From positions 1 through 64,000 of the forward strand of contig MEDY01000188.1 in the NCBI GenBank assembly GCA_001724265.1: a DNA stretch of 64,000 nt, written 5' to 3'. The number at the start of each line of letters is the position of its first letter. Within the stretch, counting starts at the first letter, position 1. The notes under the pieces are model-generated. The model was not told the origin of the DNA, searched no databases, and worked only from the letters and a program-made list of their open reading frames with translations. The stretch comes from Rhizaria sp. SCN 62-66 (Eukaryota). Below, piece after piece: positions 5,201 to 58,091 of the stretch. The translations under genes and the position numbers were made by a program.

Positions 5201-8200
5201 GATGCGCGCCAAGGCCGACGCAGAAGCCGCCGCCGCCGCTGCCGCCGCCGCGGAGGCAGCTGCCGATGCAGAAGCCAGGGCCAAGGCCGCCGCTGCCGCC
5301 GCGGCTGCCGCTGAGACGCGGTCCGCGCTGGAGTCGCTGTCGAACCCTCCGAGCGAGGAGACGTACGATGTTCTTGCTATTAGCAAGAACAAGCCTCCGG
5401 CGCAGCCTCAGAAGCAACAGCAACAGCAGCAGCAGAGTGCTAAAGTGATGACGGAGTCCAAGACCAAGCATACCACCGACTCCTATGCTAAGAGCTCCTC
5501 TTCCGCCGCCGCCGCCGCTGCAGTTTCGACTGCAACTGCGACTTCTACGCCGCTGCCCGAGGCTAAGACGGCCCGTGCGCCGACCGCGGCGGACCTGGCT
5601 GCCGCCAAGGCGGCTGAGGCGGCGCACGCGCGACACAGCCTGGAGCAGCAGCGCGAGTTTGAACGGTTGAGCCAGGAGCACCAGCGCAAGCGGGCGGCGG
5701 CGCTTGTGAGCGAGCGCGAGGCCGCCGCTGCGTACGCGAGGGAGCAGCGTCACCAGCAGCAGAATCGCGAGGAGCGGGAGAAGCAGCAGCTGCTGCGCGA
5801 TGCGCAGAGTGTGCAGGCGCAGATGCGGCACCACGAAGAGCGCGCCGCCGCCGAGCGCGCGCGCGTGGCCGAACAGGCGGCCGCCGACAGCGCCGCAATC
5901 GCCAACCTGTTGTTGCCGGTCTTCCCGGTCCGCGAACCGCTGGTGGTGACGTCGTTGGCGCAGCTGCGCGCGCCGCAGCCCGCCGACTCGCCGTTCGCGG
6001 CTGCAGGCGTGCTCACGGCCGCGGGCGGGTACGTGGACCACGAACGCGTGCTCTGCCGCGTGCCGCTGCAGGTGCCCATTGCGCCTGCGCAGCTGCGCAC
6101 GCAGGAGGGCCAGTTCCTGCTGCAGCAGCTTGCCATCGTCATGGAGCGTCTGGCGCACGCGCAAAAGTGCCACAACGACTTCCTGCTGGCGACGGCGAAG
6201 CAGGCACACGCCGAGACCGAGCTCGAGCTCGCCAAAGCGGCGCTTAACGGACAGCTTAGCGAGAAGGAGGTCGAGCTCTACTCGACCTGCCACGACCCCA
6301 AGAAGATCGGTGAGATGGCCGCGTACGTTACAAACACCAATCTCAAGCGAACGAAACGCACCTTTTTTGTAATTTTGAACTCGTAGAACTCGTTTATTTT
6401 GTTTATGTCTTCATTTTATCTTCTCATAATTTTGCGGATTTATTTTTATACTGTTTTCTTTCTTGCTTTGCTCCACCACTCCTTCGCCGCAGTGCTGCCG
6501 AGGTTGCCCTGAACGAGCGCCGCGCGGCCCGCGGCGCCTCGGGCACCGCGAACGACGACATTGACCTTAAGGCCGAGATCGAGGCGTTCCAGATCACCTC
6601 GATGCTCAACGCGGCGACGAACCGCGTCACGCCCGCGGAGCTGTGGGATCAGTCGAACCTGGCGCTCTCCTCGGCCAACGCGAGCTGCGCGTCCCTGCGG
6701 CACGAAAAGGCCTCGGCCGCGGCCGCCGTGTCGGAGGTCATGACCGGCTTCAACCAGATGCTAGCGACGCGCCTGCACCCCAACTTCCTGTTCGCCAGCG
6801 AGGACATCTTCCGCGACTGCCAACTCCTGCTGGCGTGGTTTTCGACCGTGACAATCGCGCTGCGCGGCTACGTCCCGCTGGACAACACCGTCATCGACAA
6901 CATCGCGCTGGGTCTGACCTGGGGCCTCCAGGGCGGTAACGGCTTCATCGTGTCCTATACCAGCCAAGTCAGTCTCAACAGCGTATCTCAGACCGGGCTC
7001 GACGTCGTTGAGTCGTGGTTCCGCGCCAAGAACTCGGCCTGGGCGCTCAGCGACGGCGGCATCGACTTCATCAACGCGCGTTTGCTCACACTCAAGGTCG
7101 TGGACCACGCGCCCCCGCTGCTGGCGCTGCTCTATACGATCGACGCTAAGGCCGTGGCCGCGATGCCCGCTGAGTCGGTCGCAGCCGTGTGCGAGGCCGT
7201 CCACTCGCTCATCTCGGTCACGCTCCCGGCATGCGGCGTCTCGCTGGGCAGCCTCCGCGGAGCGCTCGTCGCCGCGCAGCTCGTCGCGCCGGAGGGCGCA
7301 CCGCTGTTGACCGAGCCCGACCTCGCGTTCCCCGCCGCGTCCCCGTCCGCCGCCGCCGCCGGGGCCGCGGCCGGCGCGGGCTCGCTGACGGCCGCCGACC
7401 GGCTCCGCGGGCTCACCGCGCCATCGGCGGCGCAGGCCGCGTTTGCGGTCACTGGCTGCAACTGGGCGCGCCGCGTCGCGATGGTGGCTGCAACGGTGAG
7501 CGCGTACGTGCTTTAGCTGCGCGAGGGCGCGATCCGCCTACTCGTGCCGCGCGCCTACGCCGCGCTGCTGCGCGGGCTATGTTGTAGCAAGGTGATCAAG
7601 GTCCAGTTGGCCGCTCTGGACCACTTCGCCGAGGTGATGCCGGTGCACACCGCCGCCGCCGCCGCGGGCGCGGTCGCGGGCGCGCTGACGATGTCCGAGG
7701 CCGCGATCAAAGCGCGCGCGGTGCCGCTCTCGGTCGAAGACGTCGACCTATGCCTCTTCGGAGAGTCGGCGTGCCCGCAGTCACTGACGGCGCTCTACGG
7801 GGCCCACGCGACCGGTCTGCGCCCCGCGGCGGGCGCGCCCCCCGCGCTGCTGCTGAAGCTGCTGGGCGCGACGGTGCATAGCAACGCGCTCGAGGCCGCG
7901 CAGCCTTTGCTCACGTTCGCCGCCGCGCGCACGCACTACTGGAGGCTGCCCCCGGTCTACATCTCCAACACGATGAATGCGCATCACACGATCGATCACT
8001 CCGCTCACACCGACGTGGCGGCGACCCGCGTCTCGGACGCGTCCGCGATCCCCGTGTCGGCCAACCTCGTCTGCGCGCGCGGGGCCGTCTGGCAAGAGGT
8101 GCTCGAGGCGCTGGTAGGCACCTGGCTCTGCTCTCCGGAGCCCAACTCGGTTAAGGTCGCGCTTGCCACCGTGCGCGCGCTGCTCGCCGCCGACCCGGCG

Positions 8201-11200
8201 GGCCCCGCGGTTCAGTCGTGGCTCCTGCTCCACGGTCCCGTCCCGCCCATGTGCTTCGCCGACGCGCTCGCCCACGCTGTGGAGCAGGCGCGCATCAGAG
8301 GCCTCTTCACCACGGTTTCGGCCGTCGCCGCCGTCGGCACTGCGGGCCGCGAGGTCTTCACGCGTCAGATGATGCGGCCGGCGACGGAGTTTTTTCACAC
8401 GTTGCTCAACTTCGTCATTAAGGTCGACTCAACCGGGTCGCAACGTACTGAGATGGCGGCTGTGGTGACTGCGACACTGAGACGCAACCGCAGCGCGATG
8501 GAGGCCTACGCGCAGGCCGTGAGCGAGATGGTGCTTCTGCTCGCCCAACCCGCGGCGATGCTCCCTTCCCCGCAGCGCGGTAAGATCCTGATCGACGCCG
8601 CACTCGAGAGCTTCGTGGCGCATTTCCAAGTCCGGACCCAGGCGCTCGGCGAGGGCTCCCGCCGCACGCGCGCGTTCGCGACGGTCATGCTCGAGGTTCT
8701 CTCGCCGGCGGGCTACATGCGCGAAAACCGCAGCTACGCTGACCGGGTCAAGGGCTGGGCTGTGAAGCTCCCCAACTGCATGCGCAGCCTCGCTGCGCTC
8801 TACGTGCGCCATGCGCGCGAGGCGCTTGAGCCGACCCCGCTCGGCTCTGCCGACACCGCCGCCGCGGCTGGCGGCAAGGGCGGCGCTCGCGGCAACAAGT
8901 CCGGCGGCGCCGCGGTGGCGCCCGCGCCCTCGGTCGACAGGGTGCTGTCGCAGGACACGGTACTGACTCTGCGCGAGCTGCTGCGCTTGGCCTCACTGCC
9001 CGTCTTCACGGCTGCTGTCGACGCCCACCACGCCGCCGCCCTTGAGCTGGCCAAGGAGACGAAGCTGCTCGTGCAGGCGATCTTCGCGGTGCCTGCCCAC
9101 AGGGGCGGTGGCGGCAACAGTAGCGGCAGCGTGTCTGCGCCCGCGCTCGCCGCCGCGTTTGACATTGCATCCGCCGTCACGGACCACTTCGCGCGGCTGT
9201 GCGTCGTGGCAGCCGCCATGACCCCCGCGTCGGACCGCATCCCGGCCGGCGCGGTGTGGCCGCTCACTGCCCTCCACGCGCCGCTGCCGCACGAGATGAT
9301 CTCGGCCAAAACGGAGCTGGGCGCCGCGCTCTCCGCCGTCGTCGCCACTTGCGCCGCCTCTAGGGGCACCGCCGCCGCCGGTGCCGCTGGCCACGCTGGC
9401 GGCGACCGCGCCGGGACCGCGGCCGCCGAGGGCCTGGACCGCGCGCTATGGCACCTGGCCACCGCGCTGCACTTCGCGCCCGCGATCGTGGGCGCCAACA
9501 CCACCGCGGGCCCTGCCGCGGCAATGGCGGGCGGCCCAAACGTGTTGGTGAGCCGCACCGCCGCCTACGGACTCATGTTCGCGCGCTACGATGCGCCGCT
9601 GTGGCCCTTTGCCGACGTGTCGCTCCCGACCGCGGCGACGGCCGCCACGCCCCCGGCGCGAGGCGGCAGCATGGCCTCGATGTACAAGGCGGCCGTTACG
9701 TCCGACTCCGCGCGCGGCGCCGCTGGTGTTGCGAAGCATGGCAGCGCTTCTGCTGCCGCCGCCGCGGATGCGGATGCGGATGCCGCGGGTCTGGCGGCCT
9801 CTGGCGGCAGCAACGCGGTCGAGAGCGAGCTCCTGACCGCGCAGACCGAGCTGCTGTCCAAGCTCACCGGCGCTGCCTTCGCGCTGCTCTCCTCCGTGAC
9901 GAACCTGCTCACGGTGCCGATCCACATCCAGTCGCGCGCCGTCTCGGTCGCCGGTCTGGCGCTGCTGTCGGCGCTCACGCTGCGGCTACAGGGCTCGCAG
10001 GCCACGGACGCCGTCATCGCGCTTGTCGCGCAGGCGCGCGAGGCGTGGGCCCAATACAACGGACTCGAGTCCGCGGCGGGCGCTGCCTTCGCCACTCTGG
10101 GCCTCGTATCGCGCCGCTGGGTCTCGTTGTGCACGCGCATCGCAGTCACTGACAGCGCAGACGGCTCGCGCAACAATCGCCCCGGCGGCAGCTCCACTGC
10201 GGCGGCGTCAACATCGTCGTCGTCGCCGGCTGCCGCTTCTGCCGCCGCAGTCGCCGTGCGCAGCGGCACGGCGGCCGACGCTGCCGCGAGCGAAGTCATG
10301 GCCGAGGTCGTGGTGTCATGCTCGTTCTTCACCGCGTCCGGCGCCGCCGAGTCGCGCACGGTGACCTACTCCGTGCCCTCCGCGGCGACGACCGTGGGCA
10401 CAGTGCGCCGCCGCCTCGCGGCCACGCTTTTGACGCCGCTATCCTAGCTCACAGTCACCGCGCCCACGAGCGACGCAGCCGTGCCCGACGCCACGCTGCT
10501 GCGCGCCGTGGTGGGCGCGTTGCCGGTCCGCGTAGCGCTGCGCTGCAGTGTGCCCGCGCCCGCGCAGTCGCTCGTGGACCACGTGCTGCGCCGCATCGCG
10601 GCCCAGGACCCGTCGAGCAAGGCCAACTCCGGCAACGGCGCGCGCAGCAACGCTGCGGACGACGGGTTCGAGTACCTCACGCAGCTCAACAACAACAGCG
10701 CGAGCGCGACGGCGCGTGGCAGCACGCCGAGCACCGTCAAGGTGGGCTCGGGCAACAGCGTGCAGATCCCGCGCTCGCTGCCGTCCTCGGTCTCGGTCCG
10801 CGGGCTCGCGCGCTTCGTCTTGTCACAGGACTCCGAGGTCTTCCTCTCGCTGTTTGGGCTGCAAGACGTGCAGCGGTCCGCGCCCAAGCTCGTCGTCGAC
10901 TCGTGGCGGCTCGTCTCGTCGCTCCCGCTGCATCGGACGCTCGTCACGCGCACCATTGCGCTGTCGGAGCGCTGGGCCAGCCACTTCGATCCCTGCTCTG
11001 CGCCGCAGCTCTGCTACCAGGTCCGCATTGCGCGCGCGCTGTTCGAGCGCGCGCGCCCGGCGTCTGCGGCCCTGGGCGGTGGAAAGCTCCCCGCGCTCGA
11101 GTCCGACGCCGTGCGCCGCGGCAAGGAGGATTGGCGCCGCCGGTTCCTCATCCGCGGCTTCTACGCGCACCTCTACGCCAGCATCTTCGTCTCGGGCCTG

Positions 11201-14200
11201 CGCCCCAACGACAGCAAGGCGGACGCGCACGCGAATCCCACGCTGTGCGCGCTGCGGTACACCGCGCTGGGTGCCGTGGCGGATCTGCTGCTTGCGAGCC
11301 CCGTGTTTCTGGCGCAGCACGTCGCGCTCAAGGGTTTTGGAGACAACAAGATCCATACCATCACCCCCTCGAACGACGGCACGCTGAGCATTGCCTTCGA
11401 GCTCCTTGCCCGCCGCGAAGCAATCGACAAGAACTCAGATGCGATCGAGGCGCGCTTCGCGTCGACCGCGGTGCAGGCCGCGTCCGTACTCGCTGAGGTG
11501 CTGGGCTGCCCGCCGCCCGCCGCAACGGCCGCGGCCGCTCTGGCCACGGCCGACTCAGCGGCGTCGATGCTCGCGCGCCCTGGCTTCGCGGCCACGGCCG
11601 AGCTGGGCGTCAACATCCGTGACGCCGTCGTCACGCCCGTCCGCGCGATGCTGCGCATGGTCGCCTTCTGCTCTACCACGCTCGGCATCCGCGCGCCGGC
11701 GCCGCTGGAGCCGCCCGCGGCGCTGCTGCCACCCGGCGCGCTCTCGGGCGCTGACGTCGAGGACGAAGCCGCTGGCACCGCCGGCGACACGCTCCGCGCC
11801 GCGCGCGCGCTCGCCTTCGCTTCCTACGCCACGCTCGACGTCGGCGGCAAGCGGTCCGGCGACGACGCCGAGGCCGTCGCGGCCGCAGAGGCCGACACGG
11901 CCGACATTGCGACCGAGGGCGGTGTGCGCTGCGAGCTCCCGACACTACCCGCCCCCGCCGCGCCGGCGCCACTGACGCAGCTGTCCGTGCTTGCCCCCAT
12001 CGCGCGCTGGTGTGGCATGTCCGTCGGCGACGCCGCCACCGCCGGCCGCAGCAGTAGCCGCGGGCCCGCGCAGCAGATCCCTGCGCCCAGCGGGCGCGGC
12101 GGCGGTGGCGCCAATAAGGCTGCTGCTGCCGCCGCCGCCGCCGCTGCCGCCGAGGCCGCTGCCGCTGACGCCGCGGCCTCTGGGGCGGGCTCCGTGACGC
12201 AGTTGGTGCCGGCGGCCTTCGCCGAGTGGCTCGTCGACCACGCCACGCAGACGCGCCACCAGGCGCAGACGATGGTCAGGCTCTTCGCCGCGGCCACCGC
12301 GCCGTTTCCACGCGCGCTCGCCGCCGCGGTCGGCTGCTGCCCGCGCTCTGAGGCCGCCCTCGTCGCCGCGGCCACCGCGAACTACGGCAACCACCACCAC
12401 CACGGCGGGCACGGCGCCACCGCGGCCGCCGAGATCGCTGCCGCGGCCGTGCGCGGGGCCCGTATCGAGCGCCTCACAGCCGCCGCGGTGCGCCGCGCCG
12501 CGCTCGAGGCGCTGGTGGCGATGACGCGCGCGTACCACGCCGTGTTCTCGCTTACGCTCGCGGGCGACAGCTCCGACGAGCGGCCTGTGATGTACTGCAC
12601 CCAGCCGCGCGTGGCGGCAGTGACCACGGTCGCGTCGCAGGGCGCGGGCGGCGTGGTGCTGACCGAGGGCGCGGACCCGCTGGCCAAGCTCGCGTCCGAA
12701 ACGGCGCCGCCCGACGTGTTGTTCAACACCACGCTGGCGCTGTATCTGCCCGGCATGGCCGCGGCCGCCGTGCCCGCCGTCGCCGCGCTCGCCACGGCGC
12801 AGGCCCAGGGCGCGCCTGTGCGTCTGGGCGCTGGCGACGGCGTCATTTCTACCGTCTTGGCCACGGCCGCCGCGCTGCCGCTGCCCGGCTCCGCAGCAGA
12901 CTGCCTCGCTAACGTGCCGGGCGGGTTCTCGCCCGCGCAGCGCCGCGCGCTGGCCGCGTGCCTGGACCGCGCCGACGCCGCGGCCGTGCTGGGCGACTAC
13001 CTGTCGGCGCTGTCGGCGCTCGTCGCCGAGTCTGCGGCCGCGACCGAGGCGTCGGCGCAGCGCTCCAACTCGTTCCAGTTGCCCATCGTGTTCGCCACGC
13101 CGCTGGGGCTGCCGGTCCACGCCGCGCCTGCCGTGCTGGTGGCCGCGGCCGAGGCGCCGGGCCTCGTGGCGGTCTCAGAAGCGACGCCGCAGACGCAACT
13201 GCTCGACCTGCTGTCCGCGCTGCAGCTCACATTTTCCGCGCCCGCCGCCAACGCCGCCGCTCTTAACGCCGTCGCCGCGCAGCAGAGCGCGGGCAGCGCG
13301 CCGTTTGCCGCGCTGGCCGCGCGTGCCGCCGAGGGCGAAGGCGAGGCATCGGCGTCGGCGTCGCTGGTGCTGGCGGTGGCCGCGGTGCTTGACGCCGCTG
13401 CCGCCACGGTCGCGCAGTCCGACGTCGGCTCGCTGCTTCTCTCACTGCCCGCCGCCTGTGATCTCGTCGCCGCCGCCACGGCGCGCTGGGTGCTGGGCGC
13501 TGCAGTCATCGCGCCGCAGCTGCCCATCGGCGCGCCGTACTTACAGTCTGTGGCAGCCGACAGCGACCGTTCCTGCGACTGGGCCGTTGCGCCGGGCCCT
13601 GCCCGTGCGCGCGCGCTCGCCGCCTTGGCCACGCTGCTCGGCCTCGCGCCCTCGTCGTCGTCGTCGTCGCCATCCCGCACTGCGAACGCGAGCGGTAGCT
13701 ACGGCAGCGCGGTCACCGTGCACTCGAGCGCCGCGATGCTGGCCGCGGCCGCGAGCCCAGCCCAGGTGCTCGCGGCCGCGGGTCAGACCGCCAGCGGCCG
13801 CACGGTGTCACCGCTGCTGGGCGCCGTGATGCGCGCCGTCGGTGGGTGGATCACCGCGGACCGCGCAGCCGAGACCGTGGCCACAGTTGCCAACACGGCG
13901 GGCATCACTGCGTCGACCAAGCTCATCGACGCCGTCTCGGCCAAGGCGCGCGGCGACAGCAACTCGAGCCTGAGCCGCAGCCTCGGCGGCATCGCCGTGC
14001 AGACGGTTGCCGTCGCAACGAACGCGACGTTCCTGCCGCAGGGCGTGATCATGCCGGGCGGCGGCGCCAGCGGCGGCAGCATCAACACGACCAGCGGCGG
14101 CGACAGCCAGTCGCAGGACCCCGCGTTGGTGGCGCTTAACCCCGACGTGTGGGGCGTCGACATCATCAACATCAATAAAAGCCACGGCGCGAGTTCGGCG

Positions 14201-17200
14201 CACAGCGAGAGCCTCGCCGTCACCGCGCCGCGCGGCCTCGTCAACCTCGGCTCGACGTGCTACCTCAACTCGATGCTGCAGCAGCTGCTACATTCGCGCT
14301 CTTTCCTCCGCGTGCTCTTCGGCTACGACGCGCGCCACGTCATCACCGGCCGCGCGCTCGAGTACCGCATCTCCTCCGCGAGCGCGGCCGCGCCCGCGCC
14401 GCTGGCGCTGCCGCCCGCGACCGAGCTGCCTGTGGTGCCAGCGGCGCTCATCGCCAACACCCTGCTGTTCCAGCTCCAGGCGCTCGCGCTCAACGTCGCG
14501 CTGTCGCCCGTCACGGCCGTCACCGCGTACGGCGTGCTGGCCGCGCTGGCCTACGCCGACGACGCCACGCACGTTGAGCGCGAGCAGGAGTGGCACTGGG
14601 AGCGCTGGGCCGCGCTGCGCGGCGACCCCAGTATGTCGGACGCCAGCACGATCCCGCTGCCCAAGCGCAACGTTAACTTCAGCGCGCAGCAGGACGTGAC
14701 GGAGATCTACGCTAAACTGCTGGCCCAGCTCTCGGACGAGCTCTCGCACGCAGACCTGGCCATGCGCCACGCCTTCGGCAATGACGAGCGTCTCTCGCCC
14801 GCGGCCACCGCTGCGCAGGCCGCCGCCGCCGTCGCGGACGTGTGGGCGGGCGGCCAGTACGCCGCCGCGGGCACCGGGCGCGCGCGCGAGCGCGCCGGTC
14901 TGGTCAAGGCGTGCCTCGGCAACGGACTGGTGCGCGAGATGAGCTGCGGGCTGCAGCGGCGCTTGGTGCCCGCGCAGTGCCGCCACGTGCGCAGCAAGGA
15001 CGAGGGCGCTCAGTGGATGGTTTCACTCGAGACGACGCCCGCGCTCGCCGGCAGTGAAGCCACGGCCGCCGCGGCCGCCCGCATCGCCGCCGCTACGGGC
15101 GCCGGCGCCGCTGCTGCGGCCAGTGCTGCGACAGCCGCGGGGGCGAACACCGTGCGCGCCGCTGCGGCCGCGGCCGCCGCGGCCAACACGCCCGACTCGA
15201 TCGTTACGTGCCTGAGCGCCTTCTGCTCGCAGTCGATGCTCTCCGGCGAGAACGCGCTCTCGTGCCCCGCCTGCCAGCGCCTCACCAACGCGCAGGCCGC
15301 GTCGGCCGCCTCGGCTGCCATCAGTACCAAGGCCGACACCCTGTCCGAGTACCAGCTCTCTCGGCTGCCGCGCTCGCTGCTCGCGCTGCACCTGAAACGC
15401 TGGGAGTACAACATGGCCATGAAAAGCTCCCTCAAGGTCTCCACGTGGACGCGCCTGCCTGACGTGCTGTCGGCCAACTGCGCCAGCGGCGCCGAGAGCG
15501 ACGCCATGAGCGGCGGCGCGCACCGCCTGCACTGGACCGAGGGCCGCGCCGCCGCGGGCAACAGCGTCGGCGGCGTCGGTAGGAGGCGTGTTGGCAGGGG
15601 CCGCGTCGCGAGCTACAGCGACTACACACCCAACGGCAACGACTGCGGCTGCCGCGGCCACGCGCTGTCGGGCGTGCTCGTGCACGTCGGCTCCGCTGGC
15701 GCTGGCCACTACTTCTCTTTCGTGCGCGACCGCGGCGCGCTGTCGCTGCTCACCGGCACCGTCGACGGCGCTGCCCCCGGCGCGGGCTCCGGCGCCGGCG
15801 CGGGCTGCGGCGGTGGCGGCACTGGTGCCAGTGGCGAGCGCTGGTGGCGCTGCGACGACGCCGCTGTGACCCCACTGGACCGCGCCGCGCTGTCCGCCGA
15901 GTCGTTCGGCATCCTGCCCTCGCTCACCGCCGGCGACATCGCGGTGCCCAGTGGGACCCCGTCGGCGTACATGGCCATGTACGAGCGCCAGCACGAACCC
16001 AACTGCCCGCAGCGCTGCGGCAGCGCCGCGATGGGCGAGTCCGGCCCGATCACCGTGCCCGCCTACTTGCACCAGCTGCAGGCGCGGCTGCACGCGGCGC
16101 GGCGCTCGCTGGCGCGCCTGTCGCTCACCACGGACCCCGCGATGCGGGCCTTCGTGCTCGCTGCAGTGGCCACCGCGGCGACGACCGTGGCGGCTAGCGG
16201 CGGCGGCTCTCCCACCAGCAGCTTCAGCCTCAGCGCCGCGCAGACTCCTGCGCACAGCAACAACCTCGACGGCCTCGACAGCGCCGCACCCGCGCTCGCG
16301 ATGAGCGCGACGGCGTTCGAGGGCGTGGCCGCCGCGGTCAACTACACCGTGCACGTGCTCGCGCGCTCCCCACTGGCGCTGCTGCCGCAGGCTAACGAGC
16401 GCGAAAGCGTCTTCTCGGCCTGGGCCGACCTCTGCCGCGGCATGCTCGCCGCGCTCCCGCTGCCCGCCGCGCTGATCATCAGCCCCAGCACTAACGGCGC
16501 GCCACAGCAACAGCAGCAGCAGCCGCAGCAGCCGTCGCCCGCAGCCCGCCTGCGCCAGTCGCTGCCGGCGCTCTTCTCGCCGCACTTCCTGGCCTACGCG
16601 GCGACGACTGCGCCGCCCGCAGTGATGAGCGAGATCGTCTCGCTCTCGCGCGCGCTCGCCGGTTCGCTGCTCGTGGCGCCCGCGGCCGTATGCAACGCGC
16701 CCGACGTGCGCCGCTTCACGGCCGCGTCGTGCCTCCAGTTCGCGCTGCAGAACTCGCCCGCCACAGCGGCGTCGCGCGACTACAACAGCCCGGCCGTGAG
16801 CGCGGCCGCGAACGAGGGCCAGCAGATCGCCGCGATGCTAGCCTGCGTCGTGGCTTGGGTCGACGCCTGGTTGGGCTTCCTCGCGCTCTACGCGCACCAC
16901 ACCTCTGGCGCCGGCAACGCCGACTCCGTGTCCACGGGCGCGTCCCCCACCGCGGCCGCGGCCGCGACGGTCGAGACGCTGACCCCGCTGCTGCCGCTGC
17001 CGCTGCGCTTCGCCGAGTCCGCGACTGGCGCGGCGACGCAGGTGACCGTGGGGCTGGCTTCGCCCGTCGCCGCTCTGCTGCACCTCTTGCTCGCCCCGCC
17101 GCAGCCGCCCGTGCCGGTGTCGGGCGCGGCTGTCGCACTGGCCGCGGGCGGTTTCGCCGCTGGCGGCTTCGCCAACGCCGGCGAGGGCGGCTGTCTGTCC

Positions 17201-25250: not shown

Positions 25251-25295
25251 GCAGACTCCTTGGCGGGCTTCCCAATGGGCTATCAACAGTTGATG

Positions 25296-38090: not shown

Positions 38091-38527
38091 TATATGCGCT
38101 ACGCGCAATAATATCACTGAACGATACGATGTTCTGCTGTTTTTTGAATATTATACTACTTTGTACATGTATATATAGCCGTTTAATACAAATTACAGTT
38201 GATTTCCTTTTGAACGACCACCCCAGAGTGAGTCTCACCACAAACGCCAAGAAATCAAGCCGCACCAGATCTGTGGCAGGACAAATCTGGTCTTTGGCTC
38301 TTTTTTCACGATAAAACAGATGATCAATACGACCGCTTTTGGGGATGCACTTAGTATAATTGTATTGTTTGTGCTTGTTAGTACTAGCACTCATTTAAGC
38401 AAACGTCGATAGTTTTGTTTATTGATGTCATATCTTCGAAACCAAAACTGACCACACTTCGCGTTTCGCGCTGTCGCACGCCGCTATTTGCTGCCCCCCA
38501 TGTTACTTGTTCTAGACTATCGCAGAG

Positions 38528-48227: not shown

Positions 48228-48620
48228 TTAGCCGAGGTTGCGCTTGCGGGCGTTCTCGACGGCGCGGCCGGCGATCTCGACCTTGAGAGCCTCGTTGCCC
48301 GCCGTGGACGAGTCGTCTGGCGGGTACACAACGTAAGGGCGCTGTGTTGGTGCAGTTCATGCGTGAGAAGGAGCGAAGAAGAGAGAGAAGTGGAGTATTG
48401 GGGTAGGGTGAGGGTAGATGCAAAGATCGAGAGGAGCACATGATTGGATGGCCGTTGATACAGGAGCAGGCGAAGCGGCACAGAGACGTACATTGCGGAC
48501 AACCCACTCGCCGATGGGAGTGTTACTAATGCAGTAGACGGAGAACACGGGAACAGCGATGTACAGGGTCATGCGGATAGCGTCGAGACGCTGCAGCAGG
48601 CGTTTGGAGATTGTGCTCAT
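48228..48620 (-). CDS. PET100: Cytochrome c oxidase assembly factor PET100 homolog (80 aa)
   Basis: complement join(48492..48620,48228..48341). Intron 48342-48491 (GTACGT...ACAG). Protein MSTISKRLLQRLDAIRMTLYIAVPVFSVYCISNTPIGEWVVRNRPYVVYPPDDSS...KRNLG ending TAA. One TM segment followed by NRxYVVYPP matches the PET100 pattern. Confidence 0.75.
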
Positions 48621-48997
48621 TTTGGCACGTGGGGGCGACCTCTGCAATGGGACGAGTGGGGACGTTCCAGGCGATGAAAATGAGTATAATAAGAGGAAAA
48701 TTAGTGTGTGTGTTTGAAGTTTGATTATCATTAGTGATATGAGTCTGGACGGACATGGGAGTGTGGTACAGTTGATTCTTTGTTCACGGTCAAGCCCACC
48801 CCTTCGCCCCTCGACCCCCAGCCCGCCTTCTCACCCTCATCAAGAAATCATAGATACGCCCCAAATCAATCGTCAACCGGTGTTTTTTAGCAGAATCCCG
48901 AAATTATACGTTGCTTGATTGTGATTCTCTAAATTAATTTTCCTAATACTCCTTTCTTCGTCCGACTTCGCACTGTCTCACTCGCGAACAGAACACC
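48621..48997. promoter_or_regulatory. Probable compact bidirectional promoter between PET100 and SAE1
   Basis: Head-to-head genes ~380 bp apart with an AT-richer spacer. No specific motif identified. Confidence 0.45.
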
Positions 48998-50383
48998 GTG
49001 TCCGCTCCCGCTGCCCCCGCCCCCGCGGCGCCCTCCATGGCCCCAGCCTCGTCCTCCGCGGCCGCGCCCGCGCTGACGGATCAGGAGGCGAAGCTTTACG
49101 ACCGGCAGCTGCGCGTGTGGGGCGTCGAGGCGCAGCACCGCATGCGCACGGCCTCGGTCCTCCTCGCCGGGCGTGTCAGCGGCGCTGCCACTGAGGTCGC
49201 CAAGAACATCATCCTCGCGGGCGTCGGCTCCGTCACGCTGCTGGACCCCACGCCTGTGCGGCCCGAGCACCTGGCCGCGTCGTTTAGCCTCCACCGCGGC
49301 GACGTGGGTCGCCCGCGCGACGTGGCCATCGCCGAGCGCCTGCAGGAGCTCAACCCAAACGTCTCTGTCTCCGCCTACCGCTGCAGCAGCGAGGGCTATA
49401 GCGCGGGTTCGAGCGCGGCGCCATTCACCGCGGCAACGGCCCCCGCGGCGTTTTGGCGCTCTTTTGACACAGTGATTCTGTTCGGCGCGAGTCTCCACGA
49501 CGCTGTCACCGTCAACAACCACTGCCGCGGCGTCAGCGGGGGCACTGACGCCAACTCTACCACAACACAGACGTTCACCGCCGCGGGCTCCAGCGCGCCG
49601 CAACAGCATCAGGGGCAGGAGCAGAACGGTGTGTTTCGCGTGGCACCGGTGACGTGGTTCTGCTACTGCGCCTTCTTCGGCGACAACGCCTTCTGGTTCC
49701 AGGATCTGGGCGTCGAGTACCGCTACCTCAAACAGATTAAGAACGTCAAGGGCGTAGTCACGGACCGCGTGCCCGCCGCCGCGACCTACAGCCCGCTCGA
49801 CGCCGCGCTTGCGCGCCTTGTCCACGCCCCCGCGTTTCCCCCCGTCTCCAGTGCGAGCGATAGCGATAGCGAGGCGGACGCGACCAGCAGCAGCAGCAGC
49901 AGCAGCATCGAGCTTGAGCGTAAGAGCGACTGTATGTGCAGCAGCGACGACTGGGAGGGCCGCGCGCTGCGGGCGCTGCACGCGGCGTGGCCGGCGTTTG
50001 CGCGCGCGCTGACCGGGCGGTACCGCCGCGAACGGGGCCACGCGGCGCTGCTGCTGACGATGCTCTGCGCCGCCGCGGCCGCGCACGACTCAGATCTCGC
50101 CGCAGCCGCCGCGCTCGGGACCGCCGCCACCGCGCTTGCGCCCATCGCCACCAACGAGCATCAGGCTGGCGTTAAGGACGACGACAAGGAGGACGCGCCG
50201 GAGCAGGTGACCGTGGGCGGCGCGGCCCGCCTGCGCGGCATCGAAACCGTCTCTGACGCGGCCGTGGTGGGTGGTCTGCTCGCGCAGGAGGTGCTCAAGA
50301 GCCTTGCGGGACAGTCGGAGCCGCTGCAGAACGTCGCCGTGTACAACGGAGACGAGAACAAGATCCTCGTCTTTAACCTGTGA
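48998..50383 (+). CDS. SAE1: SUMO-activating enzyme subunit 1 (AOS1/SAE1, ThiF family)
   Basis: LTDQEAKLYDRQLRVWGVEAQHRM, EVAKNIILAGVGSVTLLD, LQELNPNV and AAVVGGLLAQEVLKSL..EPLQN. Intronless, stop TGA 50381-50383. First ATG is 49037; an in-frame GTG at 48998 is an alternative start. Confidence 0.9.
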   Translation: MSAPAAPAPAAPSMAPASSSAAAPALTDQEAKLYDRQLRVWGVEAQHRMRTASVLLAGRVSGAATEVAKNIILAGVGSVTLLDPTPVRPEHLAASFSLHRGDVGRPRDVAIAERLQELNPNVSVSAYRCSSEGYSAGSSAAPFTAATAPAAFWRSFDTVILFGASLHDAVTVNNHCRGVSGGTDANSTTTQTFTAAGSSAPQQHQGQEQNGVFRVAPVTWFCYCAFFGDNAFWFQDLGVEYRYLKQIKNVKGVVTDRVPAAATYSPLDAALARLVHAPAFPPVSSASDSDSEADATSSSSSSSIELERKSDCMCSSDDWEGRALRALHAAWPAFARALTGRYRRERGHAALLLTMLCAAAAAHDSDLAAAAALGTAATALAPIATNEHQAGVKDDDKEDAPEQVTVGGAARLRGIETVSDAAVVGGLLAQEVLKSLAGQSEPLQNVAVYNGDENKILVFNL

Positions 50384-51158: not shown

Positions 51159-51641
51159 ATGATTGATCGCAAGTCAGGTCTCGACGACAACCTCCGCGCA
51201 CGCGGCCGCTTCGCCAGGGACGGCCGCCTGTGCGTGAACAACATGCGGAATCCAGATATCAAGCAACAAGTTGCGTAGCTGTACGCGCAGAAGCGGCTTT
51301 ACGGCGAGGGCCCGGAGACGAGGGCGTGCCTAGTCACCGTGCGCAACGCTCAAGTAGAGATTGACTTTGAGTTCGTCAATGAGTCGACCACGTTTCCCGC
51401 TGGCACTGGCACTGGCGCTGGCGATGGCAGCAATGGTGACGACGCTATCGGCGGTTGGTTAAGCCTCCCAGCAGTCAGGGAGCCGATCGGCGACGTGAAT
51501 GTGGAGGAGATGGATGAAATACGTCACCAGCGCTCACACGATCAGGTCGAACCCAATCGTCACACAAAACTATTGAACAATATAATCGACACCGTATCGG
51601 TCTCAGTAGTGCTGCAGCTGCCGGCTTCACTGTGCGCTTGA
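51159..51641 (+). CDS. Small hypothetical protein (~160 aa) with one in-frame TAG
   Basis: CACC-ATG at 51159 opens a GC-rich, coding-like frame that continues through TAG 51276-51278 (DIKQQVA*LYAQKRLY) into track ORF 51339-51641, ending TGA. It may be a gene fragment. Confidence 0.45.
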
Positions 51642-54343
51642 AAGCACGAGATCACGGCTGCGTCAAAGGGCTCGTCGCCACAGTCCCGTTCAATCGGGCC
51701 AGCATCCTGCGGGCTACACGACACCACGCGGCCGACGGGCACGGCGCCGCGCAGCAGACTGGTCGGGCACGGCTTGAACACGATGAACCACGGCGTGTCG
51801 AACTGCCCTATCTCGCAATGGACGTCACTCTTGCCACAGAGCACGCTGCGCGGGTACATAAGCACCGTGCCGACCGGGTAGAGTGCCTCTTCCGTTGTGT
51901 CCTCTGATGCCGGATCTGCTGTTGGAAGGTTATATTCGCCGAAAATGATATCCGACTCTGGCAGCGCAATCGGGGACGTGAAACAGGGAGCGACTGAGGA
52001 GGGGTGATACAACGTGGCGAAAGGCAACGAGGCCGTCGCAGACTGTCCGCAGGGCACGAAACACCGGTGTACGAGCGTGCCGAGCGTCGGCAGCCTCCCC
52101 TCCTCGGAGACGGCGGCAAGGCGGAAGTGCGCGGCGTGACTGGGAAACTTCTCGTCGTTGAGACGTAGCACCACCCAGTACTCATCATGACGATGAGTTT
52201 GCGCATTGTAGAAACTCGCCTCCATTATAATGTCAGATAACATGAAGTTGGCTGCGAGCCGATCGCGTTGAGAGCCCGCCACGCGCTCCCGCGCCCGCGC
52301 CTGCAGCACCGCCAGCGCCGCCGCCGTCGGCGTGTAAAGCGGCCGCGCAGGCGCAGGGAGCACGCGCCACGAATCGAGGGCGGTAAGCCGCGTGACGCGT
52401 CGCGGGTAACCACACTCAGCCTCCAGGCGCCACGCCGTGAGCGCGTTGAGCGCCTCGATCCAGCCGCCGCGGTACTGGCGCGTGATTGCGCCGACCTCCG
52501 CCGCCGTCCGCTTGCGCTGCGCAGCGGCCTCCGCAGTCTCAGGGGCGGCCGGGCTGAGCGCGGTCGTGCCCTCAAGCAGCGCGCGCAGCCGCGTGAGCTC
52601 CTGCAGCGCGGTGTTGTCGTCCTGCTGTGTGAATTCGGCATAGCGCAGCAGCTCGATCGCCTGCAGGCCGCGGCACGAGATGAATGTCCACACGAAGCGG
52701 TTGCGCGGCTCTTCGTCGAAACCATTCTCGTCGTCAGGCGCAGCACTGGCAGCAACGGCAGCAGCGGCAGCGGCAGCCTTGGGATCTGGCATAGTGTCAT
52801 CGGCCGACATCAGCAGGCGTAGCACGCGCATCAGACGCACGATCGCATCATCACCTGGAGCAGTCGCACTCTGACTCTGGCGCTAATTCTGCGTCTGCAC
52901 CGGGACGACATCAATGCTGTTAGATTGCCCGCTCCAGAGCGACGCAGCGTGCAACAAATACGTTAAACACTGCACAACGCCACTGTGAAGCAGATGTCGT
53001 GCCACATTACGTAATGCACGATTATTACCAGCATCACCAGCATCACCGTCGTCGGCAGCAGCAAACTCAGGAAGCATGGACTCAAAAAGACGCGCCGCAT
53101 TCTGCAAGAGAGCAGAACGCTCGGCAAGGTGCAGTCTGCTGTAGGAATTTTCAATGCCGATGGAAATCAACGCGAGATTGTCCGACAATGAAAGTTGCTG
53201 CTGCGCAAAGGCGGGGAAGCGCCGCGCCAGCCGTGTGAACACATCAACGAGCGGCACAACGAGTGTCCGGGGCAGTTCCTGGATGTCTGCGTCAAGGATT
53301 GCGCGCACCAGCGACAGGCGCAGGGGCGTGAAAATGCGCTCGACGGTAGCGTCGTCGCAGTCCTCATCAAGAGCGGCGACGCACCGCTGGAGGAGGCTGA
53401 GGGGAGGGAACGGTTTCTGCTCGTCCCAACGGTCCGTGTACGTGGGGATGTCTCGCAACACAGTGTCGAATTCTTCGCTAAGCGTGAACTGCACAATGGC
53501 GTCAACATGCGCCGCGTCACCACCGTCGTGAGAGCTGCAGGAGCGGAACAGGGCTTGGAGCGCAGCGCACAACGATTCGCGGATTCGGTGATGAGACTCG
53601 TCTTCAACACAGGCACGAGAGAGCTCAGCATGCAGCAGCGGCACGTAAGACGCAATTGCAGCATATGGTGGGGGCAGGCCGTGGAAGCACAGAGCCGCGA
53701 CAGCGTTGAAAAATGTATCGCGAAGCATCATGGACAAGAGCTCGTTATCAAATGCTGCGACAGACTGCTCCATGCGCATACAGGCGAGCACGTCGGACAA
53801 CGCAGAGTGCCGGACAGCATCGGTAATAAGCGGAGATACAGATGCAGCGGTCACGAGCAGAAGGGTCCCTATCATCGCATGCTGAAATGTGGAAGCATCG
53901 GTGTCGCTGCTATCGGCGTTATGGCGCGCCGCTTCTTTCTTGATGTTGATCATCATGCCACAGCGGATAACCAGCGCACCAGCGCGCGTGACGGCGTCAT
54001 TCAGAGCCGCCACAGTAAATGCGTTTGCTTTGATGGCAGAATCACCATGAGTGACAAACTTTGGTAACTCCTTGTCAGCAATTGTCCTAAGAAAAAAGGT
54101 TACGAAGCTGAGGTTGCGTGCTGACTCATAATCGTCATTGTAAATGCCAAGGAGCTGAACAAGCAGGCAAACAATCTCGCTGTCCAACAAGATGTTGAAA
54201 GTCATGGGCTCTGCCTCGGTGCAGCAGTTATTAATGGCGGCCTCAAGCTCGGAGAAGTGAGAACTGAGATTTGACGGCGCGAGGCTGCAGACCTTGCCTA
54301 ACGCAGTGTGGAGAAAAGTGAGGAGATCAGAATTTGATTCCAT
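51560..54343 (-). CDS. Divergent importin-alpha-like ARM-repeat protein with a C-terminal degenerate cyclophilin-like domain (~927 aa), one in-frame TAG
   Basis: ATG at 54343 (MESNSDLL). Track ORFs 52883-54412 and 51560-52840 are in the same frame, separated only by TAG 52883-52885. ARM-like segments LRDTFFNAVAALCFHGLPPPY..YVPLLHAEL..IRESLCAALQALF and NRFVWTFISCRGLQAIELL. Cyclophilin-like segment at ~51640-52180. Stop TGA. Confidence 0.7.
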
Positions 54344-55429
54344 ATCGCACAAGAACGACCGTAGCAGATGATATGTCTTAGGTTGTAGACTAGAATTAGT
54401 TCCCGGAAACAACGGTGTGAGACCTTATCACGATAATACAGCACTAATACACCGTTAAAGGGAATGCATTAAAGGAGGTGAGCTGGGGATGAGCCTGAGT
54501 TTTTACAAATTTCATAGCAACATCCGAAGATTTAGCGGATTTCATAAACAGAATACAGTCTTACCGATGCATTTACACCAAAATCATATTATTACAGTCC
54601 GTTTTAGATTGACAGTACATCGTGGTATCGATCCAAACTACTAAGAAAGACAATCTCTCGAACTGTGGAGTGGAGGCTGTGTACATGTTGAGCATTACTG
54701 GTGAAACAGCGTCCTCTGGGGAATATATATTCATGAATCAAATAATGAACGCGCCTAGTTTATGTCCAGATCCGTATGATTCAGGTTTCTTCGAGCTTAT
54801 GATGCCATACATTTCTGAGTGCTGCAGCTAGCATTAAGGCGCGTATGGTGTGAGAGTCTAGTTTGGATACGATCGAAAATTGTTGTATTCAGTCAATACT
54901 AGAATACATTATTCGCGTGTCACCTTTTATACGATTAAATAACTACATACAGTTCCATTATATGCCATTTTATGATGATTGTTTTACTTCTTGCTCGACT
55001 TCTCCTTCTTCTCGGAGGTCTCACCAGTCACAGCATGGCGACTACTCATGCGCCGGGTTCGGCAGTCTTCGCCTTGCTCCGGCTATTGCTCTTGGACTGA
55101 ACAATATCAGCAGCAGCAGTATCAGTATCAGCGACAGCAGAGGTAGTGACATGACTGTCACAGAAGCCTTCGTCTTAGCGGCGGCGGTGGAAGCACGGCG
55201 ACCGCGGGCGGGCGCGGCAGCGGCCACGGGGGCGGGCGCGAGCGCCTCCGCAGCCGCCGCAGTGGCCGTGGCAGCCTCAGCGCCCGCTCACTGCATCAGC
55301 GCTAGCAGCAGCGTCCTGACGCCGCCGGCGCTCGCGGTCGCGGCGCCAGTCGCGGCGCCAGCAGCGGCCGCGGCGGTGGTGGCGGTTGAGCGGCGGCACG
55401 CGCGGTTCAGCCGCGCCAGCGCCGCGCCC
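54253..55429. repeat. Unit 1 of a local tandem duplication (5' end and upstream region of the ARM-cyclophilin gene + 3' flank and 3' end of URB1)
   Basis: 54253-~54700 aligns by eye with 55430-~55865. 54690-54718 aligns with 58323-58350, and ~54846-55429 aligns with ~58356-59110, with substitutions and indels. Confidence 0.88.
54984..55429 (-). pseudogene. Duplicated, internally deleted 3' fragment of the URB1 gene
   Basis: Near-identical to 58501-59110, including the terminal TAA, but lacks ~200 bp (~58560-58765) and has no start of its own. Confidence 0.85.
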
Positions 55430-55520
55430 AGAAGTGAGAACTGAGACTTGACGGCGCGAGGCTGCAGACCTTGCCTAACGCAGTGTGGAGAAAACTGAGG
55501 AGATCAGAATTTGATTCCAT
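55407..55520 (-). pseudogene. Chimeric 37-aa ORF: copy of the ARM-cyclophilin N-terminus fused out of frame to the URB1 fragment
   Basis: MESNSDLLSFLHTALGKVCSLAPSSLSSHF|WARRWRG-TGA. Junction at 55429/55430. Confidence 0.75.
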
Positions 55521-55865
55521 ATCGCGCAAGAATGACCGTGGCAGATGATATGTCTCAAGTTGTCGACTAGAATGAATGACATTGTTAGACTTTATCACGA
55601 TAATACAGCACCGATAAAGGGAATGCATCAAACGAGGTGAGTTGGAGATAAGCCAGAGTTATTACACATTTCACGACAACATCCAAAGATTTAAAAAATT
55701 TCACAAACAGAATAAGATGTCATCTCTGCGTTTACATCAAAGACAACATGCTAATATAGTCCGTTTCACATTGACAGTACATGTACATCGTGGCATCGAT
55801 CCAAACGACTAAGAAAGACAATATCCAACTCTGGAATAGAGGCTGTGTACAGGTTGACCATATGG
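55430..55865. repeat. Left part of duplication unit 2 (copy of 54253-~54700)
   Basis: Shared blocks include GACGGCGCGAGGCTGCAGACCTTGCCTAACGCAGTGTGGAGAAAA and GTACATCGTGG(T/C)ATCGATCCAAAC(T/G)ACTAAGAAAGACAAT. Confidence 0.88.
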
Positions 55866-56268
55866 TAAATGTGTACAAACGTACTGTACGTACTAGATAC
55901 AGTACCATGGTTCGTGATCTCCACGTAAGGCGTACTTTAAAAGATATAAGCAATGTACATATACTGTATTTCTCAGCTAGGTCGGACTTGCATCAAGTCT
56001 TAAAATACTGCAGTTCTACTATTAATATAAGCTTATCATTAAGTCACGATCACAAAAAAATATGGGATAATTTGGTGGGATAATTTGGTGTAATTCTACA
56101 GTTATAAGTTGGAAGACTGATTACTTGTACGGTCGAAGCATTGTCCGTCTTGTTGCCACTCGGCGGCACATTCCCAGCATCTTCTGTGACAGCAGACTCG
56201 GCAGCAGTGCTATTGTTGCCACTGTCCTCGTTCGTTTCCCCTGTCGCCGTCGTCTCGGGCTGCTCAGT

Positions 56269-58091
56269 TTAAGTTTGTGAGTTGGCATCATCATGATCAG
56301 GATAATCATCATAACCGTCCTGAGGGTCAATCTCGCCATGATCTTCGTCCTCGCTCTCACCCTCACCACCCTCGCCCTCACCGTCCCGATCTTCGTCCCC
56401 GTCTACGTCCTCTTCCTCAGCGGCATCATTGTCGCCATGATTGTTACCGCCACCCCTCGCCTGGGCGTTGGCTTCGGCGATGCGATTCCGCCTCATAAGC
56501 ACGTCCTGTGGCACCCCAAAGTCGCCGATGATGTCTATCAGAAGATGCACCAGCTGCATTGTCTCCTCCCGTGCCTCCGTGATCACACACGCATTGTGGT
56601 CCTCAAGCAGCTTCAGCAGCTCCATGTGGCCGTCGAACGCGCAAAACGCCGCCAGGGCCTCGTTGCGAGGCCGCGCGCGCTCGGTCAGCACCGCAGGGTC
56701 CGGGCTCGTGTCGCCGAGGCAGATGATCTCGGTCACGGCCTGCATAAACCGGCCAAGCTGCCCCTTCAGCGGCGGCACCCGCAGCGTGCCCGCGGCCCCG
56801 ATCGCATAGGCGCAGTAATAAAGCGCGCGCGCGCCGATCAGCAGCTGCGCCACGGCCCCGCGGCCGCCGTCAACGCTGCCGGTCGCGACGTCGTCCATCG
56901 CGTTGTCCAGAACCCAGGAGATCTCGTTGCTGACCGACCACTCGGCGGCATAGTTGTCCTCGTCGCGCGGCGGTACGGGCGCTCGCGTAATCAGCGCGGA
57001 CAGCACGTTGCCCATCAGCACACGCGCCGCCGTCTCCGGGCAGTCAGCGAGCAGGTTCGAGACGAGCAACGCAAGCTCGCGGAACGTCTCCGTTTCATTT
57101 TGGTCCAGCTCCTCGGCCAGCCGGCGCAGGTGGGCCACCACGGCCGGCGTGAAGAAGATCCGTTCGCGGCCGCCGTCAAGCGTGGACAAGTTGCCCAACA
57201 GGCGCAGCACTGGCGTGCGGGTCGACTTGGGCCCGTGCAGCTGCCGCGCAACGCGGGACAGAATGCAATCGAAATCTACGTCACCGTCACCAGGAGGCGC
57301 GACGCTATCGTCAAGGATACTGTTCTTGTCCTTGGGGACGATGAGGAGGTCTTCAAACCGAACGCCCTCGGACTCTTCGCGAAACATGTTCTCGCGAAAC
57401 ATGTTCGTCAGACTCCACGCACGTCGACGAGCGCGTTGTGCAGGCTGTCGTGCTCAGAGTCGTGCTCGGAGAAGCGCCGCAGGCAGCGCGCAAGCAGCGG
57501 CACGACTGGCGCTAGTTGTGAGTACGGCAGCCCGACCTGCGTGAAGCTGCACACCGTCCACAAGAGCGTGTTCTGCACCGCGTCCCCCGTGGAGCCGAAG
57601 CCGTGTGCGTCGGCGTCAGCGTCGGCGTCGACCTCGGCGAGGAAGCGGATGACGTGGGCGAATACCCCGCGCTCGATGAGCGAGTCGGTGATGTCGCGGT
57701 TCATCTTGGCAATGCAGCCCAGCGCCCAGAGCGCGTACTCGACAATGTCGTCGGGCTGGCCGAGGTAGAGCACGCAGCGGAGCTTCTCGGCGACGCCGCG
57801 TTCAAGCATCGCGGTGCAGCCCGATGTAGATACGGCGAGGTCGATAAACACCGAGAGCGTTTTAATCGACCGTTCGGATTCGTCCGCGTCCCCGCAGTAG
57901 TCGAGTGAGCGCAGAAGCCAGTCGAGCACGCTGTGCTCGAGGCAGGCCTCGGTTAAAGCCACCAGGTCTGAGTCCGACTTGGTGGCCGAGGTGATGCAGC
58001 GTAGAGCCTCGATGCCGGCGGACGAGGGCGCCAGTGATGTCAGAGACGCGAGCGCATTCTGGAACTAGCCGTTGGTAAACGGGGTTGTCAT
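56269..58091 (-). pseudogene. Importin-alpha-like ARM-repeat gene with a 1-nt frameshift (probable pseudogene or sequence error)
   Basis: GCGCGCC-ATG at 58091, TAG at codon 9 (58065-58067). ARM motifs VEYALWALGCIA, VLRLLGNLST, FRELALLVSNLL and VSNEISWVLDNA. Frameshift at ~57421 (GAC GT GCG TGG AGT = D[V]AWSLTN). In-frame 15-bp duplication MFRENMFRE. TAA at 56269-56271 is followed by more coding-like acidic sequence. Confidence 0.7.

Follow-up and report, generated by a model that had tools for sequence, protein, structure and literature searches.

In nuclear genetic codes the meanings of UAG and UAA almost always change together. In the accounts considered here, only about half a dozen nuclear lineages are named that have uncoupled the two codons (PMC11687900, PMC5304391). 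UAG alone is reassigned in the rhizarian exLh, where it is described as leucine, and in Iotanema spirale, where it is described as glutamine (PMC11687900, PMC5304391); Scotinosphaera (serine), Protocruzia tuzeti (glutamine) and phyllopharyngean ciliates (leucine or glutamine) are also listed (PMC11687900). Here we analyse a stretch of 64,000 nucleotides (positions 1 to 64,000 of contig MEDY01000188.1, assembly GCA_001724265.1; termed the window) in which the codon TAG interrupts otherwise continuous reading frames. A preliminary description of this DNA had proposed that UAG is a sense codon, and that UAA and UGA remain stops. The UAG-only lineages which it named, exLh, Iotanema and some phyllopharyngean ciliates, are described in the literature, but Scotinosphaera and P. 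tuzeti were missing from its list (PMC11687900).

In I. spirale, a member of the Fornicata, UAG is scarce, UAA is the predominant stop codon and UGA is also used as a stop (PMC5304391). For exLh (Sainouroidea), 384 UAG codons are reported in 71 genes, which end in UAA (56) or UGA (15), and UAG is scarcer in highly expressed genes (PMC5304391). The mechanism argued for in both organisms consists of a tRNA(CUA), which pairs with UAG but not with UAA, and of a release factor, eRF1, that spares UAG (PMC5304391). Finally, both UAA and UAG (together UAR) are read as glutamine in Amoeboaphelidium protococcarum, many ciliates, Hexamita, Streblomastix and Ulvophyceae, so that in this group TAA also encodes glutamine (PMC6299283, PMC5304391).

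At least three genes of the window, and probably five, contain TAG in frame within exon sequence. All nine TAGs of the preliminary description were verified at their positions and on their strands (as CTA on the forward strand for 52883 and 58065). Seven of the sites are firm, and the sites at 51276 and 58065 are weaker; in the sense frame, seven TAGs are flanked on either side by 150 or more open codons. The TAG-containing genes and the nine sites are as follows, an asterisk marking the TAG in protein contexts.

Gene A, 2259 to 19207, + strand: about 5,590 codons in two predicted exons (2259-6322 and 6493-19207), UCH (USP) domain, TAA end
TAG 7514 to 7516, + strand: in gene A, which encodes a giant USP-domain protein; 400 open codons before, 976 after
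TAG 10445 to 10447, + strand: in gene A; 976 open codons before, 2,919 after
Gene B, 26253 to 38090, + strand: one exon, about 3,945 codons, four TAG, no TAA, no TGA; TAA end
TAG 26685 to 26687, + strand: in gene B
TAG 27528 to 27530, + strand: in gene B; contig 26366-27909 of DNA sample X3, 0 differences
TAG 29568 to 29570, + strand: in gene B, context VQAQ*YTQ; 679 open codons before, 2,536 after
TAG 37179 to 37181, + strand: in gene B; 302 open codons to the terminal TAA; contig 35986-37623 of DNA sample X3, 0 differences
TAG 51276 to 51278, + strand: codon 40 of a 160-codon open reading frame (ORF; 51159-51641); 120 open codons after the TAG; weaker site
Gene D, 51560 to 54343, - strand: about 927 codons, one TAG, TGA end
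TAG 52883 to 52885, - strand: in gene D, where it takes the place of a glutamine in a Q-x repeat (VQTQN*RQSQS); preceded by 513 open codons and followed by 440
Gene E, 56269 to 58091, - strand: overlapping frames 58091 to 57408 and 57453 to 56269; TAA end
TAG 58065 to 58067, - strand: in gene E, 8 codons past the sole upstream in-frame ATG; weakest site

The intact frames beyond each TAG are a stronger argument than the TAG-only pattern. With TAG read through, the frame 6314 to 19207 of gene A comprises 4,297 codons with two TAGs, and the frame 26178 to 38090 of gene B 3,970 codons with five TAGs, one of which lies upstream of the first ATG. The preliminary description had pointed to two large exons with six TAGs and without TAA or TGA. 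We recover both (12.7 kb in gene A, 11.8 kb in gene B), with these counts and without any frameshift; the large exon of gene A appears to be the second of two exons. Nine exon segments with a total of 14,800 sense codons contain seven TAG, no TAA and no TGA. Internal TAA and TGA as common as internal TAG, which had been named as a sign of pseudogenes or errors, are thus not observed in these segments. In gene B the other five frames contain 10-36 TAA, 47-100 TGA and 12-34 TAG each, compared to 0, 0 and 4 in the sense frame, indicating that TAG is depleted from the latter but not excluded. Overall, in-frame TAG accounts for about 0.05% of codons. Past a TAG, a frame can stay open and unshifted over as many as 2,919 codons, and even the last TAG of gene B, at 37179, is followed by 302 open codons and a terminal TAA that abuts an AT-rich spacer. 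Decay or true termination at these sites is therefore unlikely.

Which frames are the sense frames was established from the UCH domain, from splicing direction, from the pattern of G+C at third codon positions (GC3) and from the contrast between the sense frame of gene B and its other five. Two further analyses were less useful. Scanning for internal stops by codon-usage log-odds gave noisy results, since in the alanine-rich genes the antisense frames also score as coding, and shadow ORFs confound a six-frame count of stops with open flanks of at least 150 codons (19 TAG, 8 TGA and 2 TAA, mostly outside the sense frames). TAG density is 4 in 3,945 codons for gene B (GC3 0.62) and 2 in about 5,590 for gene A (whose GC3 is 0.78 for exon 1 and 0.89 for the large frame of exon 2), and no TAG is present in highly expressed gene C, URB1 and SAE1. 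TAG density thus tracks codon bias.

No gene of the window ends in TAG (0 of 11-13 ends). The ends are:

TAA ends, + strand: 1600, 19205, 25248, 38088, 47291
TAA ends, - strand: 48228, 56269, 58501
TGA ends, + strand: 50381, 51639
TGA end, - strand: 51560
Doubtful TGA ends, - strand: 20136, 57408

The earlier claim of nine TAA ends, three TGA ends and none in TAG is therefore correct in its last part, whereas its count changes to eight TAA, three firm TGA and two doubtful TGA. Provided that TAG would normally make up about one quarter of stops, the probability of finding none among 11-13 ends is, by our own arithmetic, P ~0.03-0.05. As an observation in its own right, more genes end in TAA than in any other stop (8 of 11-13) despite 62-91% G+C at third positions, which is unusual for so GC-rich a genome. 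This predominance may be connected with TAG no longer serving as a stop.

Window DNA was found in seven studies, the samples being bioreactor, wastewater and activated-sludge runs. Assembled contigs, not raw reads, from DNA and RNA samples were compared with window positions 26100-46099, a stretch that includes four of the nine TAG sites, all of them in gene B. Contigs of X3, a DNA sample taken in 2017 in another study, carry all four TAGs, and contigs of X4, a DNA sample of 2025, carry two of the four among the pieces listed, in each case with 0 differences. TAG 26685 lies within the X3 contig 26366-27909 and the X4 contig 26100-26731, and TAG 29568 within the X3 contig 29267-30679 and the X4 contig 28925-30690. 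Moreover, a metagenome contig of 1,544 nucleotides (L001) is identical to window positions 26366-27909, including TAGs 26685 and 27528; since its span is the same as that of an X3 contig, it is probably not an extra source beside X3. Standard-code gene calls for gene A, present on up to four contigs in JGI, Logan and ENA, stop just before each TAG. Protein P0009 ends exactly at 7514 (..AYVL) on four contigs, and P0008 ends with ..TPLS just before TAG 10445 in all three archives. The TAGs of genes A and B thus recur in other samples and archives, which makes an assembly error unlikely.

The surroundings of the TAGs resemble exons. Over 61 nucleotides the GC content around the nine sites is 0.51-0.67, compared to 0.32-0.44 in eight introns (seven shown by RNA and one predicted), in line with the earlier statement that the frames resume in GC-rich sequence without AT-rich spacers. 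GT..AG spans of 40-400 nucleotides were considered intron-like if they combined a strong donor, a GC content below 0.5 and a pyrimidine-rich 3' end, and such a span covers none of the nine TAGs. In-frame spans with a strong donor that do cover a TAG have a GC content of 0.57 or more, in contrast to the real introns. The TAG at 6384 falls inside the predicted intron 6323-6492 of gene A and would thus not be an exon site. Regarding RNA, a contig of X7 (26545-26916), an RNA library that is doubtfully labelled, runs across TAG 26685 in a colinear, unspliced manner with 0 differences. X7 does contain RNA, since its other contigs are spliced at the seven introns of gene C. In both X7 and X5, a polyA RNA library, depth is zero in the bin of TAG 29568, and for TAGs 27528 and 37179 bin depth is present in RNA, while the pieces listed do not show those positions.

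Public gene calls already reflect the TAGs, as had been anticipated for any standard-code annotation of these genes. In JGI, Logan, ENA and the ESM Atlas, genes A and B are split at them into 'proteins' of 217-967 residues (P0008, P0009, P0131-P0134), and the Atlas entry for gene D begins 18 residues past its TAG.

Judged by sequence context, UAG most probably encodes glutamine. Of the 90 residues that lie no more than five positions from one of the nine TAGs, 14 are glutamine; the overall glutamine content is 3.5%. In the window proteins, glutamine makes up 13.6% of the neighbours of glutamine residues and 2.3-5.4% of the neighbours of all other residues. When nine sites are drawn at random, 14 glutamine neighbours are reached with P = 0.36 for sites centred on glutamine, but with P of at most 0.007 for any other residue (0 of 5,000 draws for leucine, P = 0.0008 for serine). 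The seven firm sites alone give a P of 0.42 for glutamine versus at most 0.03 for all others. In a naive-Bayes ranking of the contexts glutamine comes first and methionine next, at -6.2 log units. Finally, TAG 52883 fills a glutamine slot in the pattern Q-x-Q-x-*-x-Q-x-Q.

We also looked for relatives of the TAG-containing regions. A search of protein representatives over the gene A sites (query window 7211-10810) gave two matches, both of them the organism's own fragments, and the same result was obtained in a homologous-protein search with residues 100-1300 of P0002. Metagenome contigs searched with a 679-residue piece of the 3,970-residue query yielded only L001. The known relatives P0003 (57%, SAE1) and P0010 (60%, gene C) belong to genes without TAG in the window. 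For the surroundings of TAGs 7514, 10445 and 51276 neither Pfam nor PDB gave a match, and neither database matched the ORF 51159-51641. A ubiquitin-like domain with TAG 10445 at the start of strand 3 was guessed and modelled by AlphaFold (predicted local distance difference test (pLDDT) 69.8, predicted template modelling score (pTM) 0.62); Foldseek found 0 matches to this model at E <= 0.001 and many weak rows for ubiquitin with template modelling scores of 0.25-0.38. Neither the guess nor the Foldseek result was used.

We therefore regard it as likely, though well short of certain, that in this nuclear genome UAG is a rare sense codon, most probably for glutamine, and that UAA, the main stop, and UGA terminate translation. 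The proposal that UAG is sense while UAA and UGA are stops thus finds support in the open frames, the exonic position and recurrence of the TAGs, the absence of TAA and TGA from 14,800 codons and the lack of TAG ends. More tentatively, and with somewhat less than an even chance in our estimation, it could represent an independent and hitherto undescribed UAG-to-glutamine reassignment, used at ~0.05% of codons by an uncultured eukaryotic lineage that recurs in wastewater reactors. Such a code would be expected to involve a tRNA whose anticodon is CUA and which decodes UAG but not UAA, derived most simply from tRNA-Gln(CUG), and an eRF1 that no longer releases efficiently at UAG. UAG codons would arise mostly by CAG>TAG transitions and would be best tolerated where a gene is long and its codon bias weak; gene B, as opposed to gene C, may be an example.

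A number of observations weigh against a glutamine-encoding UAG. The 64 kb, with nine sites and 11-13 gene ends, provide little power. Random single-base nonsense changes would, with this codon usage, produce TAG in 63-65% of cases, and seven TAGs out of seven then have a P of only about 0.04 (own arithmetic). Antisense shadow frames are also long and broken by TAG alone, such as the frame 8395 to 13782 on the - strand with 1,796 codons, 15 TAG and no TAA or TGA, and therefore the TAG-only pattern is not diagnostic by itself. No ortholog extends over any TAG site, so the amino acid is read from context only, and recent CAG>TAG nonsense changes would result in a glutamine-rich context as well. 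Moreover, the TAGs at 7514, 10445 and 26685 lack a glutamine neighbour, and the gene A sites are flanked by leucine (YVL*LRE and PLS*LTV). RNA cover was seen at one of the four compared sites, and it comes from the doubtfully labelled X7, whose contigs cannot exclude DNA carry-over. A tRNA(CUA) and eRF1 were not seen in the 64-kb window, which contains no tRNA gene, no Rfam match and no eRF1 gene. Finally, the frame of gene E is broken, so not every gene of the window is clean.

Four other explanations were considered. UAG might be ambiguous, still ending some genes and being read through at the present sites in a context-dependent way by a suppressor or near-cognate tRNA, which we think unlikely. 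The very low frequency of in-frame TAG would be consistent with such leakiness, as would the base that follows the nine TAGs (C in five cases, T in two, A in two and never G), compared to a purine after 9 of 13 gene ends, and 11-13 ends are too few to exclude TAG terminators elsewhere. However, making the full-length protein would take four readthrough events in gene B and two in gene A, for which low-efficiency leakage would presumably be insufficient, and no window gene ends in TAG. It is likewise quite unlikely that UAG is a sense codon for another amino acid, be it leucine as in exLh, serine as in Scotinosphaera, glutamate, tyrosine, lysine or tryptophan. The lack of an ortholog alignment at any site leaves room for this, and so do the three sites devoid of glutamine neighbours, the leucine flanks in gene A and the poor performance of the context classifier on true leucine sites, where leucine was called in 38 of 300 draws. 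The neighbour counts given above, both for all nine sites and for the seven firm ones, argue against every residue but glutamine, and with nine true leucine sites glutamine was called fewer than 20 times in 300 draws, outside the four commonest calls.

That the TAGs never reach the ribosome as UAG, owing to unrecognised in-frame introns or to RNA editing, is very unlikely. The splicing evidence covers positions 26100-46099 only, there is no RNA depth in the bin of TAG 29568, and a 133-nucleotide GTACGA..TAG span that starts at 58197 could have its acceptor AG in TAG 58065; read from the sequence, this span would leave ~113 coding-like codons without an ATG. On the other hand, none of the nine sites lies in an intron-like span, the in-frame spans with strong donors are too GC-rich, the X7 contig retains TAG 26685 unspliced and unchanged, and among the splice joints listed, beyond which there are 23 further ones, no GT..AG joint is found inside gene B. 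The least probable explanation, that the code is standard and the TAGs stem from nonsense alleles, decaying pseudogenes or errors of assembly, could draw on the TAG-biased nonsense spectrum, on a glutamine-rich context that fits CAG>TAG changes and on the frame break of gene E, but it is at odds with 14,800 codons free of frameshifts, TAA and TGA, with frames that stay open for up to 2,919 codons past a TAG, with identical TAGs in samples from 2017 (X3) and 2025 (X4), with TAG-truncated fragments on up to four contigs in three archives, and with neighbouring genes that are expressed and spliced.

The window comes from the nuclear genome of a eukaryote whose introns are few and AT-rich and whose genes are alanine-rich and very high in GC. 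This follows from the eukaryotic proteins detected by Pfam, the distribution over samples and seven GT..AG introns shown by RNA. In steps of 2 kb the GC content is 0.48-0.76; coding frames have a GC3 of 0.62-0.91, and AT-rich islands (GC 0.28-0.44) are found between and inside them. Alanine accounts for 2,985 of ~15,500 residues, about 20%. Pfam searches with the window proteins returned UCH/USP, SAE1/ThiF, a WD40 coronin-like protein, NopRA1/URB1, a metallo-beta-lactamase fold and a weak PET100 match, all of them eukaryotic. The named matches of SAE1 are a yeast, an acoel and a green alga and are uninformative on kinship, and the atlas neighbours labelled 'Chlorophyta', with scores of 0.86 or lower, may reflect composition only. 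The genes that served as controls, and the introns of gene C, are:

Gene C, 38528 to 47293, + strand: 2,573 codons after removal of seven introns, no TAG, TAA end
RNA-shown introns of gene C, + strand: 38637-38816, 39290-39400, 39938-40083, 40294-40459, 43988-44154, 45214-45351, 45547-45682
SAE1-like gene, 49037 to 50383, + strand: 448 codons, no TAG, TGA end; Pfam ThiF, named SAE1 matches, relative P0003 at 57% identity
URB1/NopRA1-like gene, 58501 to 63297, - strand: 1,598 codons, no TAG, TAA end

Gene C consists of eight exons, the intron joints being given by contigs of X7 (contig depth about 40) and X5. After splicing it contains no TAA and no TGA in 2,573 codons before its terminal TAA. 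The seven introns are of the GT..AG type and 111-180 nucleotides long, with the donors GTACGT (four of seven), GTGCGT, GTACGC and GTACGA; a full-text search found no literature on GTACGT donors. The same donor is used by the predicted intron of gene A (6323-6492, GTACGT..CAG, 170 nucleotides, GC 0.36), which would join the ORFs starting at 2124 and 6314 in frame and which lies outside the stretch with sample-contig comparison. The UCH domain of gene A corresponds to residues 2640-3223 of P0001 (Pfam E 2.7e-20). Gene B matches no known family in Pfam.

Two further observations concern gene C. The X5 polyA contig (2,483 nucleotides) differs from the window by 36 letters and 6 gaps, nearly all of them within ~170 nucleotides at the start of the big exon (40624-40795), and the remainder is identical; the region is either a hypervariable patch or marks a second allele or strain. 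Moreover, gene C matches no Pfam family, but has relatives among metagenome proteins. The ortholog P0010 (60%) aligns over 38837-47290, P0011 is 37% identical, and most others (120 listed of 283) are proteins of ~2,100 residues, which, with one exception among the matches listed, show 28-34% identity over nearly the whole last exon. Roughly a dozen of the matches listed are named, and all of these come from bacterial metagenome-assembled genomes (Planctomycetota, Myxococcales, Verrucomicrobia and others). This similarity suggests that gene C belongs to a bacterial-type giant protein family present in a eukaryote, through old sharing or transfer.

The remaining genes show some peculiarities. 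The C-terminal part of gene D may be cyclophilin-like, a lead from atlas scores of 0.86 or lower. Its 5' end (54253-54657), comprising the promoter region and the first coding part (MESNSDLL..), is duplicated ~1.17 kb upstream at 55430-55825 with 79-94% identity. The duplicate, which continues into an alanine-rich frame that includes a TGA near 55288 (- strand), may represent a first exon that has decayed or serves as an alternative one. In gene E the frame change (57453-57408, - strand) adjoins a perfect 15-nucleotide tandem duplication (GAACATGTTTCGCGA x2), and intron-like sequence is absent at 57400-57460. The change may be due to an insertion or deletion, real or from the assembly, to two abutting genes or to a programmed shift. 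Finally, a small two-exon gene at 48228-48623 (- strand) is located antisense between two + strand genes; it ends in TAA, has its GTACGT donor behind ..EWVVRN and matches PET100 weakly (E 0.005).

If UAG has indeed been reassigned, a GC-rich, intron-bearing, non-ciliate case would provide a data point on how eRF1 gives up UAG alone, and would bear on rare CAG>TAG drift under a suppressor tRNA as an entry route. TAA as the main stop at a GC3 of 0.8-0.9 would be the opposite of what simple codon capture under GC pressure predicts. The existence of genomic contigs means that tRNA(CUA) and eRF1 would be directly readable, unlike in exLh or Iotanema when these were described. On the practical side, standard-code callers have fragmented the proteome of this organism in public metagenome resources, because they split its genes at TAGs.

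Two known types of code do not fit the window. The UAR-to-glutamine code (NCBI table 6, Amoeboaphelidium type) does not agree with 0 in-frame TAA in 14,800 codons and eight TAA ends, and an ambiguous code in which all stops have a dual meaning (Condylostoma or Blastocrithidia type) does not agree with the absence of TGA and TAA from sense frames. In NCBI translation table 15, the 'Blepharisma' code, whose attribution to Blepharisma is historical, TAG encodes glutamine; we take this to be the same formal codon table as the one proposed here. Iotanema, as far as it is described, resembles the window in having the same inferred code, scarce UAG and UAA as the main terminator (PMC5304391). It differs in being an anaerobic metamonad known from a transcriptome, whereas the window is GC-rich genomic DNA from aerobic or mixed wastewater reactors, with AT-rich introns of 111-180 nucleotides and an amino acid deduced from context rather than from alignments. 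The account of exLh describes a UAG-only change in a non-ciliate, with UAG rarer in highly expressed genes, as in the window; however, its UAG is abundant and encodes leucine (PMC5304391), in contrast to ~0.05% of codons and a context test that counts against leucine here. The green alga Scotinosphaera, as listed, shares the UAG-only change and UAA as a stop (PMC11687900), but serine is disfavoured by our context test (P = 0.0008). P. tuzeti and some phyllopharyngean ciliates are also named as having UAG reassigned without UAA (PMC11687900). No ciliate-type features were seen in the window. Ciliate genomes are typically AT-rich and have very short introns, unlike the window. Full-text searches of the literature, supplementary files aside, turned up no account of a GC-rich eukaryote from wastewater that uses a code of this kind. 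Thus, the type of code has been described before, and the organism would add a case to it, possibly in a new lineage.

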